A stretch of 49,454 nucleotides of DNA from a virus (Duplodnaviria; Heunggongvirae; Uroviricota; Caudoviricetes), in the IMG/VR virus record IMGVR_UViG_2519899780_000002; one strand, 5' to 3'. Every line of letters starts with the position of its first letter. The stretch's first letter is position 1. Below, piece after piece: positions 18,001 through 21,000 of this stretch. Made by a program: the position numbers.

Positions 18001-21000
18001 CCGGCGACAGTCGGGGAGATTGCGCAGAATACTTACCTTTCACGCGAACGCTGCCAGTTAATACTGACCCAGCTTGTTATGGCGGGTCTGGCAGACTATC
18101 AGTGCGGTTGTTACAGACGCCTTCAGTCCTGAAGGCTTTTTATTTGTGGTGAATGGGCGGCTGGTGGGGGGGCGACACCTGTCAGTCCTTTGCTTATGTG
18201 TTGATGATAATTTACCTTTTGGGGCTATAATTGAGCTAACCAATTGCTAATGAAAGTAAAATTATAATGGCTGTTGTCTGTTCAGTTATCATGGTTTGCT
18301 CCCCAATTAATATTTTTCTTGAAAAGGATACGTTGTCACTTAAGCCAGGCTCAGTTGTTCTGGCCACCAAATGCATCAGGGAGCTTTTCCTTATGCATTA
18401 TGGCAAAGTTAAAATTGTCGATATAAGCGAATCCGTCGTAAGTCAATATCTGGAAAGTCAGCATAAGCTGACGAGGACTCGTCTGACTGACATTCCGCTT
18501 TACCTGTTGCTGGAACCCAACAATCCTGCGTTGGCTGCGGCTTTAATTACCAGCCAGGGATTTTCCGGAGAGGCCACGGATATGTTTCTTATGATGGCCT
18601 GCCTGTCTCTGTTTGAAACAGATGAACGGATGTCATTGTTTTTAAGTGGATGTTTATCCAGCATAAGTGCCAAAGTCAGGGCGATAATTCAGACAGATAT
18701 ATCAGCAAGCTGGACGCTTGGTGCGATTGCTCTACAGTTGCATATGAGTGAGAGTTTGTTAAAGACAAAACTGAAAAATGAAGGGGGCATGTTCAGTCGC
18801 TTGTTGCTGGAAGAGCGGATGCGTGTTGCTGTAAATATGTTATGTTCCCGGCATGGATATGGACAGGCTATAGCAGAAAAATGCGGTTATTCAAGCAGGT
18901 CCTACTTTATTTCTGTATTTCACCGCTATTATGGCTTCCCGCCAGACAGATATGTATCCAGGCAAGGGCTTGATTATTGATTTTCATCTGATTATTATTT
19001 TTTGGCTCGGCCCTTTAGCTCAGTGGTGAGAGCGAGCGACTCATAATCGCCAGGTCGCTGGTTCAAATCCAGCAAGGGCCACCATCACATACCGCCATTA
19101 GCTCATCAGGAAAGAGCGCCAGCCTTCGAAGCTGGTTGCGCGGAGTTCGGGTCCCCGAAGGCGGTTCATTATCTGTATCCTGCGTTGTTAGCTCAGCCGG
19201 ACAGAGCAATTGCCTTCTAAGCAATCGGTCACTGGTTCGAATACAGTAGAACGCGCCACACTTATTTTCCCTGGCTCGCTTTTGCGGGCTTTTTTTTAAA
19301 TGTCTCACAATTCAGGCGGTTGACTGTTGTCTGGTTTGCGGGGAGTTTGTTAAAAGAAACTGGCATGGTGAATCCCCCTGTGCGGAGGGGCAATCAGCGA
19401 GTAGGTATATGGGATAATCGCGGATTCAGGTGCTGGTACTGAATTCACCGGGAGGCACCCGGCACCATGCAATGGCACATAGTGCCACTCTCCAGCCCCT
19501 CTCCGGAGGGGCTTTCTTATGGACAAAAAAAGCCCGCGCAGGGAGACGCGGGCGGCAAGGAATAAACAACAAAACGTGAAGTAATATTTCAGCTGGCGAA
19601 TAATATCCGACAGTAATCACTCTGCGCAATAGCGCGGCCTTTTTCGTATTGCGGGCTGTTGTCTATCTTCTGCCATTGTCCTGTAACTTCCGGACTTCAG
19701 CCCGCTCCTCATTTTACTCACAATATTATCCAGGCCGGGAGGATTCATGGCATTTAAACACTATGACGTGGTCAGGGCGGCGTCGCCGTCAGACCTTGCG
19801 GAGCGACTGACACAAAAACTGAAGGAGGGGTGGCAGCCATTTGGCAGTCCGGTGGCCATCACGCCTTATACCCTGATGCAGGCCATTGCGGCGGAAGGTG
19901 ATGTCACCACACCTGTGGTGGTGAAGCCGTCGGATGGAGAAGGCGCAGTTATCAGCACCACCAGCAACCCGGAGTATTACTTTGTTGTTGCCCTGGCCGG
20001 GCAGTCAAACGGTATGGCGTATGGTGAAGGGCTTCCGCTGCCGGAGACATATGACCGTCCGGACCCGCGTATTAAACAGCTGGCGCGTCGCAGCACTGTC
20101 ACGCCGGGTGGTGCGTCCTGTAACTACAATGACATTATTCCTGCGGACCACTGCCTGCATGATGTTCAGGATTTGAGTAAGTTTTCACACCCGAAAGCTA
20201 GCGCAGCTCAGTATGGATGCGTGGGGCAGGGATTACATATCGCGAAGAAATTGTTGCCGTTTATTCCGGCGAATGCCGGTATTCTTCTGGTTCCGTGCTG
20301 CCGTGGTGGTTCTGCATTTTTGGCGGGCGATGAAGGTACCTTCAGCGAATCCACCGGCGCAAGCGAGACCTCGGCACGCTGGGGTGTAGATAAGCCACTG
20401 TACAAGGACCTGCTTACCCGTACTCAGGCCGCACTGAAGGCTAACCCTAAAAATATTCTGCTTGCAGTGGTCTGGATGCAGGGCGAGTTTGATTTGAAAC
20501 AGGGTGCATACGCCACTCAGCCGGGGCTGTTTGATTCCATGGTGGAAAAATATCGTTCTGACCTGTCGGAATTCGGAGGTCAGTGTCTCGGGGGCTCTCC
20601 GTCATCGGTTCCCTGGATTTGTGGCGACACGACCTACTACTGGAAGCAGACTTATTCTTCGCAATACGATGCGGTGTATGGTGCATACAAGACGAAATCC
20701 GCAAAAAAAATCTTCTTTGTGCCGTTTATGACGGATGAAAACGGGCGAAATGTGGGTACCAACGAGCCGTCAGAAGATCCGGATGTTGCGGATATTGGGT
20801 ATTACGGAGCCGGTGGTCGAACGGACGCCAAAACCTGGACGACGGCCGACCGTAAAACGCATTTTGGATCATGGGCACGTCGTGGGATTATTTCCGACCG
20901 TCTGGCAACGGCGATTCTTGTGCATGCCGGGAGAACCGCTGAATTCATTACCGGAAAACAGCCTGATACGGTGAAGCCCACCGGACCTTCCGGTGAAGGT

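Follow-up and report, generated by a model that had tools for sequence, protein, structure and literature searches.

What occupies the place of stxAB in a late region that looks like that of a Shiga toxin (Stx) 2-converting phage and has no toxin genes? The question is raised by a 49,454 bp virus record (IMG/VR IMGVR_UViG_2519899780_000002; the whole stretch is referred to here as the window) that derives from a prophage of Escherichia coli O104:H4. An earlier note on this DNA had recognized the gene order of Stx2 phages and had interpreted a gap of 450 bp without open reading frames (ORFs), between a tRNA cluster and a nanS-p-like gene, as an empty toxin locus. Our comparisons favor a different answer, to which we assign a probability of about 0.9: the region is the moron (cargo) site of an stx-negative lambdoid late operon, organized like that of prophage Sp4 of E. 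coli O157 Sakai, in which the cargo junction is unoccupied and a convergent pair of small RNA (sRNA) genes is carried.

Convergent small RNA genes in the tRNA-nanS-p interval

The interval between the last tRNA gene and nanS-p (19259-19746) contains no credible protein gene, the ORFs present being chance ones of 30-67 amino acids together with a RefSeq pseudo-fragment antisense to a structured RNA. To that extent the gap is ORF-free as described, but it is not empty, and holds two convergent sRNA genes. The plus-strand gene (19334-19524) is of the STnc100 family (EcOnc05/EcOnc27/sRNA103 type, related to PasD). Its match to the Rfam covariance model RF02076 scores 140.1 bits (gathering cut-off 47; E=6e-32), a score that places it within the family, covers model positions 1-206 and thus the full length, and is the same when the whole window is searched. 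The segment folds at -77.8 kcal/mol (z=-3.15 relative to shuffled controls), and STnc100 is found at the same place in all six of the related loci scanned. The Hfq-binding peak of Sakai EcOnc05 maps to 19395-19503 with one mismatch in 109 positions, and the EcOnc05 northern probe matches exactly at 19392-19426; expression and Hfq association of the STnc100 RNA of the window are thus supported indirectly. RNAs of this type (STnc100/EcOnc27/sRNA103) have been placed just downstream of stx2B (PMC12370729, PMC12711010). E. coli O104:H4 has several copies of STnc100. We note that one related locus, L008, carries two STnc100 copies (3062-3255 and 3531-3719) about 270 bp apart, which align by BLAST at 73% identity to window 19293-19515 and at 92% to 19304-19513.

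The second gene is of the EcOnc08 type, on the minus strand, and would span about 19594 to 19525. Window 19527-19599 is identical at 73 of 73 positions to the Hfq-binding peak mapped for EcOnc08 in Sakai, and the EcOnc08 northern probe matches exactly at 19599-19633, so that both the mapped Hfq-binding segment and the probe place the RNA with EcOnc08. A minus-strand terminator had been proposed near 19530-19560, and the terminator scan finds a strong one there, with a stem at 19553-19532 and a T-run to 19525 that abuts the 3' end of STnc100; the sRNA segment folds with z=-2.85. Our own sequence scan gives a promoter-like sequence, TTGCGC-18-TATTAT (19629-19600, minus strand), at a position that matches one in Stx2 phage 933W, where the aligned sequence is TTGCGC-18-TAAAAT and the -10 hexamer ends 6 nt before the 5' end of the sRNA AsxR. 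Applied to the window, the promoter-to-AsxR spacing of 933W puts the predicted 5' end near 19594, which would give an RNA of about 70 nt that ends at 19525.

Terminator-like sites are frequent in this region, with six in 18900-19900 where 0.8 would be expected by chance. Four terminator-like hairpins lie within 19273-19637, and this, together with the lack of a clear promoter for a plus-strand RNA, would also fit a passive spacer that has no product and insulates the tRNA and moron unit from nanS-p and the lysis genes. We regard such a spacer as hardly credible. The two segments correspond to Hfq-bound RNAs that cross-linking and analysis of cDNA (CRAC) and northern blot have revealed in Sakai, the minus-strand one at 73/73 positions and the plus-strand one with a single mismatch in 109, and STnc100 copies have been detected in other strains by northern blot or reverse transcription PCR (PMC5331693; PMC12370729). 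It is just as improbable that the gap codes for one or more small proteins instead of RNAs, whether these are sought in the minus-strand ORFs that PHANOTATE calls in phage phi296 or in the fragment 19353-19478 that RefSeq lists as a 'hypothetical protein'. Minus-strand ORFs of 43-67 amino acids are indeed present, three of them annotated in phi296 and one as a pseudo-coding sequence in RefSeq, and ribosome profiling of EDL933 has given footprints on some STnc100 copies (PMC5331693). However, the RefSeq coding sequence is flagged as an incomplete pseudogene fragment, the gap ORFs coincide in part with a structured RNA that matches its covariance model over the full length, and they cross an intrinsic terminator, two of the three phi296 gap ORFs have no PHROG, and the indels in the alignment of the gap, as read by eye, ignore the reading frame.

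Some observations weigh against the interpretation as a pair of sRNA genes, at least in its simplest form. The scans reveal no convincing sigma-70 promoter for the plus-strand RNA, a TTGACT at 19320 having no usable -10, and this RNA may be made by read-through and processing. Published northern blots give sizes of about 222 nt (EcOnc05) and about 271 nt (EcOnc08), larger than the Rfam match and the predicted short form; the short form is predicted to start downstream of the EcOnc08 probe (19599-19633), so that a longer minus-strand transcript must also exist, and longer or processed RNA species are likely. A search of 281 bases with the Rfam models for AsxR and AgvB (RF02703 and RF02702) finds no match even at E<=10, the positive control, 933W, giving 88 and 41 bits. 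Lastly, we infer the activity of both RNAs in O104:H4 from their near-identity to the Sakai RNAs.

The lack of a match to the AsxR/AgvB models means that the minus-strand RNA is not filed with that family and that the mode of action of its members is not transferable to it. In position and orientation it resembles them, being convergent with STnc100, antisense to the late transcript, located in the interval between cargo and nanS-p, and equipped with its own promoter, whereas the family sequence and structure, with their conserved 3' region of about 42 nt, are not found, and the body and terminator differ in the alignment. The body includes a G/U-rich stretch followed by an anti-Shine-Dalgarno-like stretch (GUUUUGUUGUUUAUUCCUUGCC), with a 7-nt run, UUGUUGU, that we take to be shared with the seed of GcvB. 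A speculative and rather unlikely reading, suggested by inspection of the sequence, is that the RNA represents a distinct class of prophage sRNA, with the locus and promoter of AsxR and a different body. It would then mimic a core sRNA or compete with one, or would repress translation directly, and would not be a sponge of the AsxR and AgvB kind. HnrS (EcOnc10/11/12; PMC13502914) was also considered as an identity for the minus-strand RNA and was rejected, as it is encoded in Sp9, Sp10 and Sp12 elsewhere in the late genes.

The toxin junction and the absence of stx

Neither stxA nor stxB is found anywhere in the window by tblastn with Stx2A and Stx2B (all hits have E>1), and blastn of the whole stx cassette against the window yields chance hits only, in agreement with the earlier observation that no stxA/stxB-like ORF is present. 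The place that the toxin genes would take is revealed by alignment with the Stx2a phage Lyz12581Vzw. Window 19005-19296, containing the tRNAs and their terminator, aligns at 92% identity, and 19301-19848 aligns at 85.5% identity to DNA that starts 42 nt past the stx2B stop codon; the right flank is 79.5% identical to that of a second Stx2a phage, Stx2_95. The flanks are thus homologous to those of Stx phages, as had been anticipated. The 1335 extra bp of the Stx2a phage, comprising the stx promoter region, stxA, stxB and a short tail, fall at window 19297-19300 only, with BLAST homology ending at 19296 and restarting at 19301, and 933W shows the same pattern in the multiple alignment. This homology break defines the cargo junction, which is empty in the window and is occupied by other genes in some relatives: TerB and DUF3927 in L007 (strain 08-00022), and DUF3927 in L006 and L008 (two clinical strains). 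We looked by eye for direct repeats at the ends of the stx cassette, as candidates to mediate a precise deletion, and found that they share only a 5 bp ATCTG, which is not meaningful.

The 450 bp gap is therefore not the toxin locus, since it aligns end to end with the conserved spacer between stxB and nanS-p, and the stx slot is at 19297-19300. As judged by alignment, the gap is the conserved spacer, with its predicted sRNAs, that is found 3' of stxB in Stx phages and not a vacated toxin site. The window lacks the stxA and stxB genes between tRNAs and STnc100/nanS-p that characterize an Stx-converting phage, and it has the Stx-phage late backbone (Q, pR', ileZ-argN-argO, nanS-p, S, R and Rz); as this backbone is present in many non-Stx lambdoid prophages, it is not diagnostic of Stx phages. 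Of the Stx2-phage architecture attributed to the region, the gene order and the flanks hold up with stxAB missing, but Q is not adjacent to the tRNAs, and the order is general to lambdoid prophages.

An empty junction could nonetheless be a scar, left in a former Stx phage by the recent loss of stxAB through clean deletion or recombination with a toxin-free prophage. The junction at 19297-19300 coincides exactly with the start and end of the stx cassette in Stx2 phages, recombination could take place between homologous flanks of the Stx2a phage and of several other lambdoid prophages in the host (five matching places per record in most O104:H4 genomes), and the Q family and much of the late region are common to the window and to yecE-integrating Stx2a phages such as Stx2_95. 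We consider this improbable, because the window retains nothing of the stx promoter, of the coding sequence or of its 3' end, and because the flanks are 92% and 79.5% or 85.5% identical to Stx2 phages as compared with 97.7-99.3% to the stx-free Nil3. Moreover, the stx-free Sp4 is 84.8% identical overall and contains the two Hfq-peak segments at 73/73 and one mismatch in 109; among the phage records listed none apart from Nil3 matches most of the gap at more than about 91%, with the listed Stx phages at about 85%; and the identical empty junction recurs in 1037 genomes. The earlier note had offered both a toxin loss and an stx-negative relative. The first finds no support, the closest relatives of the segment (Nil3, Sp4 and O26 prophages, the last with identical sRNA segments) being stx-free, and the second is upheld by the homology of flanks that lack stx. 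A long-standing toxin-free module is the simplest reading of the locus. The host does have toxin genes elsewhere, as the check proposed in the earlier note shows: O104:H4 genomes with this window also have stx2a in a separate prophage, in NC_018650.1 at 3,283,685-3,286,668, about 1.1 Mb away.

Comparison with known prophages and prevalence

The arrangement is already known from the prophages of O157 Sakai and from Stx phages. Tree et al. 2014 (PMC4104026) described convergent Hfq-bound sRNAs between a moron coding sequence and a conserved ORF in Sakai Sp3, Sp4, Sp5, Sp9, Sp10, Sp11, Sp15 and Sp17, and their Table S2 lists EcOnc05 (+) and EcOnc08 (-) in the stx-free Sp4; a review (PMC7873438) locates such sRNA dyads, for at least eight Sakai prophages, in the interval from the late promoter to the lysis genes. 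Sp4 (ECs1084-ECs1088) has the same order as the window, with Q, a small ORF, psrA, ileZ-argN-argO, no stx, the sRNA pair and nanS-p, and is 84.8% identical in DNA sequence to window 17732-20918, although the integration site and host differ. The two also differ between Q and the late promoter, where Sp4 has a plus-strand CAAX/CPBP protease gene, the window a minus-strand anti-phage cassette, and Stx2_95 nothing. Prophages with the same psrA-tRNAs-dyad-nanS-p order are present in O26:H11 strain 11368 and in another O157:H7 strain.

The stx2 locus of 933W and Sp5 is ordered tRNAs, stx2AB, EcOnc27 (STnc100)/AsxR, nanS-p, S and R, and has in common with the window the tRNA cluster, the terminator, nanS-p, the lysis genes and an STnc100-family RNA about 40-75 nt past the cargo. 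In 933W, AsxR follows STnc100 tail-to-tail on the opposite strand, and the minus-strand RNA of the window takes the same position with a promoter of the same TTGCGC-18-(-10) form. The upstream part is different: the pR' annotated in 933W extends over the end of Q, and only about 440 bp lie between Q and the tRNAs there, whereas 3.7 kb separate the two in the window, whose Q is of a family other than that of 933W. The stx-negative records Nil3 (AM051322), phi296, TL-2011a and PPwrbA_* are collinear with the window and have the tRNAs joined straight to the STnc100 module. Nil3 is 97.7% identical to window 19005-19700, with Q adjacent, and phi296 has an extra 40 bp filler at the junction and a methylase remnant upstream. 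In the loci of the Pas sRNA preprint an STnc100/PasD-family sRNA stands directly 5' of a SASA esterase gene, followed by holin and lysozyme genes, as in the window, although the window copy scores as STnc100, unlike the PasD variant; according to that preprint, the majority of such chromosomal loci are not beside stx.

About one-fifth of complete E. coli genomes contain such a locus. The toxin-free junction (query 19182-19420, 239 nt, matched over at least 80% of its length) is found in 1037 of 5426 complete genomes, and the minus-strand sRNA segment (19514-19640) in 984 of the 5426, with at least 99% identity in 621 records. The earlier note had said that a tRNA cluster common in unrelated non-Stx phages would count against its interpretation, and the frequency of the toxin-free junction bears this out in part.

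Organization of the flanking late genes

The three-tRNA cluster that had been noted (19009-19258, plus strand) is recovered by both ARAGORN and Rfam and is of the ileZ-argN-argO type. It consists of a tRNA with anticodon CAT (19009-19084; 72.5 bits in Rfam), which is tRNA-Ile (tRNA-Ile2) in RefSeq and ileZ in its 933W equivalent, tRNA-Arg(TCG) (19091-19167; 43.4 bits) and tRNA-Arg(TCT) (19182-19258; 53.4 bits). The second of these has a low score (43 bits) and mismatches in the acceptor and T stems, and its counterpart in L007 (3407-3487) is annotated as 'tRNA-OTHER'; it may be degenerate or unusual. An intrinsic terminator follows the cluster at 19273-19298 (plus strand), with a stem at 19273-19290 and then a T-run in the terminator scan (-11.4 kcal/mol, z=-3.25), and the equivalent hairpin in 933W is annotated as 'terminator upstream of the stx genes'.

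The late antiterminator gene Q (14925-15296, with the RefSeq start at 14940; plus strand) matches PF06530 with E=3e-47, is named 'antiterminator Q family protein' in RefSeq, and its product has 57% amino acid identity to Q of Stx2_95. Q and the tRNAs had been read as neighbors, but they are separated by about 3.7 kb and four genes, namely the two of an anti-phage cassette, a small ORF and a psrA-like gene for an AraC regulator, with the putative late-promoter segment after the cassette. The cassette (15276-17668, minus strand) consists of two adjacent genes (15276-16490 and 16493-17668) whose products both exceed the curated equivalog cut-offs of the NCBIfam models for the DS1 system (NF053868 and NF053869), at 375 bits for DS1_2_antiphage (cut-off 315) and 451 bits for DS1_1_antiphage (cut-off 330), and the pair thus belongs to DS1. 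The second protein also matches PF04245 (NA37), as a nucleoid-associated NA37/YejK-like protein with a Cys-rich N-terminal segment. PADLOC reports nothing for the two minus-strand genes after Q, its 2023 version having no model for the DS1 pair. Stx2_95 and PPyecE_EH1910 lack the cassette, their Q region running directly into the homologue of window 17733 onward; in the window, the cassette appears to have been inserted between Q and its presumed late promoter.

Window 17733-18168 is 90-91% identical to the DNA that follows Q in Stx2_95 and PPyecE_EH1910. On the basis of this homology we infer a late promoter and tR'-like function for the plus-strand segment at 17733-17816, in which a terminator hairpin, CCCGC-CACTGA-GCGGG followed by T6, can be read directly at about 17790-17811. 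Downstream of the putative pR' is a conserved ORF of 65 codons (17935-18132, plus strand; RefSeq WP_000917745; phrog_331, E=7e-37) that also follows Q in Stx2_95. It is succeeded by the psrA-like gene (18267-18980, plus strand; PF00165 and PF12833), encoding an AraC-family regulator of 237 amino acids. Sakai Sp4 has an ORF at its ECs1087 locus that, read in its 237-codon form, is 91% identical to this regulator in amino acid sequence; ECs1087 carries the name psrA (PMC13502914).

To the right of the sRNA pair is the nanS-p leader (19638-19746, plus strand), which has a GGAGG ribosome-binding site and is highly conserved among the window, 933W, Lyz12581Vzw and phi296; the folds of the leader and its complement give no significant sign of a cis-regulatory structure (z=-1.2 and -1.1). 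The nanS-p gene itself (19747-21708, plus strand) encodes a sialate O-acetylesterase-type protein of 653 amino acids with three Pfam domains above cut-offs (PF08410, PF03629 and PF20350, corresponding to DUF1737, SASA and DUF6645), a GQSN motif at residue 85, and 60% amino acid identity to NanS-p of 933W. With these features and its location upstream of the lysis genes it is of the NanS-p type, as proposed, and a predicted esterase. Between the STnc100 module and nanS-p, some relatives have what amounts to a second cargo slot, filled by a minus-strand iraM gene that codes for an anti-adaptor for RssB (L006, 3757-4092; L008, 3745-5152, where the copy is interrupted by ISApl1); in the window this slot has the EcOnc08-type RNA only.

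Downstream of nanS-p are a DUF1378 gene, a P21 S-family class II holin gene (22409-22624; PF04971, E=9e-33), a YdfR-family gene (22629-22973; phrog_406), a lysozyme gene (23024-23557; PF00959, E=2e-23) and Rz (23856-24323; PF03245), the last four on the plus strand. In the lysozyme the N-terminus is rich in Ala and Gly (YGLSAAVLALIAAGAPAP), and an E-8-D-5-T triad is found at residue 35. These matches, the triad and the N-terminal segment confirm the identification of pinholin and signal-anchor-release (SAR) endolysin genes, and the pair fits the pinholin/SAR endolysin type of phage 21, with release from the membrane predicted.

Origin of the window and other features

A 3.6 kb query (18200-21800) is matched at 100% identity in 14 complete genomes, of which those with a named serotype, including 2009EL-2050, are E. 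coli O104:H4; to our knowledge O104:H4 lacks the locus of enterocyte effacement. The first 41.8 kb of the window are 99.9% identical to NC_018650.1, in which the element is a lambdoid prophage adjoining cmoA, yecN and a DUF72 gene, with the integrase at the left end of the window. The window is thus a lambdoid, Shiga-toxin-free prophage of E. coli O104:H4, integrated beside yecE/yecN/cmoA. Compared over its whole length with Stx2_95, a yecE-integrating Stx2a phage, and with PPyecE_EH1910, the window shows mosaic similarity only, and the integrase region does not align to either in this comparison. The possibility that the window is one of these two elements minus stx is rejected on both counts.

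Relative to the near-identical 2009EL-2050 record there are two differences in structural genes. The window has a single ORF of 962 codons at 36074-38962 where that record annotates two genes, a tape-measure gene with a frameshift and, after it, a separate tail gene of 330 nt, and the terminase large subunit gene (26012-27982) is intact in the window and marked as frameshifted in the record. Both are probably assembly errors in the 2009EL-2050 record. Among other structured RNAs, Rfam matches isrK at 9267-9343 (62 bits) and C4 antisense RNA at 9365-9452 (75 bits), both on the plus strand and within an ORF (8907-10052) annotated by RefSeq as a Rha-family regulatory protein, and the segment 9267-9452 resembles a c4/ant-type or Gifsy-1 isrK-type immunity module. 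Near the tail-fibre genes at its end, the prophage has a match to IS009 RNA in Rfam (48849-49047, 224 bits); according to the Pas sRNA preprint, IS009 is one of the structured RNAs that are common in the vicinity of PasB.

A model for the locus and its implications

A plausible scenario is that late transcription starts at the Q-dependent promoter segment (about 17733-17816) and would proceed through the small ORF, the psrA-like gene and the three rare-codon tRNAs to the terminator at 19273-19298. Directly past the terminator is the presumed recombination junction (19297-19300), at which relatives carry stx1 or stx2, TerB with DUF3927, or DUF3927, and where nothing is present here. Two tail-to-tail sRNA genes would come next, a plus-strand STnc100/EcOnc05-type RNA that is structured and about 190-220 nt long and a short minus-strand EcOnc08-type RNA with its own promoter and terminator, followed by nanS-p and the holin, endolysin and Rz lysis genes. 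Both RNAs would regulate mRNAs or sRNAs of the host or of the prophage through Hfq-dependent base pairing, and expression of the pair in the lysogen would not depend on the absent toxin.

The discovery value of this is small, and its use is mainly as an annotation correction: the seemingly empty spacer after the tRNAs is a two-gene sRNA module that travels with nanS-p, with or without a toxin, and the real cargo site is the 4 bp junction just past the tRNA terminator. For O104:H4 it means that, very probably, an extra pair of EcOnc05/EcOnc08-type RNAs, of a kind that bind Hfq in O157 Sakai, is encoded outside its Stx2a phage.

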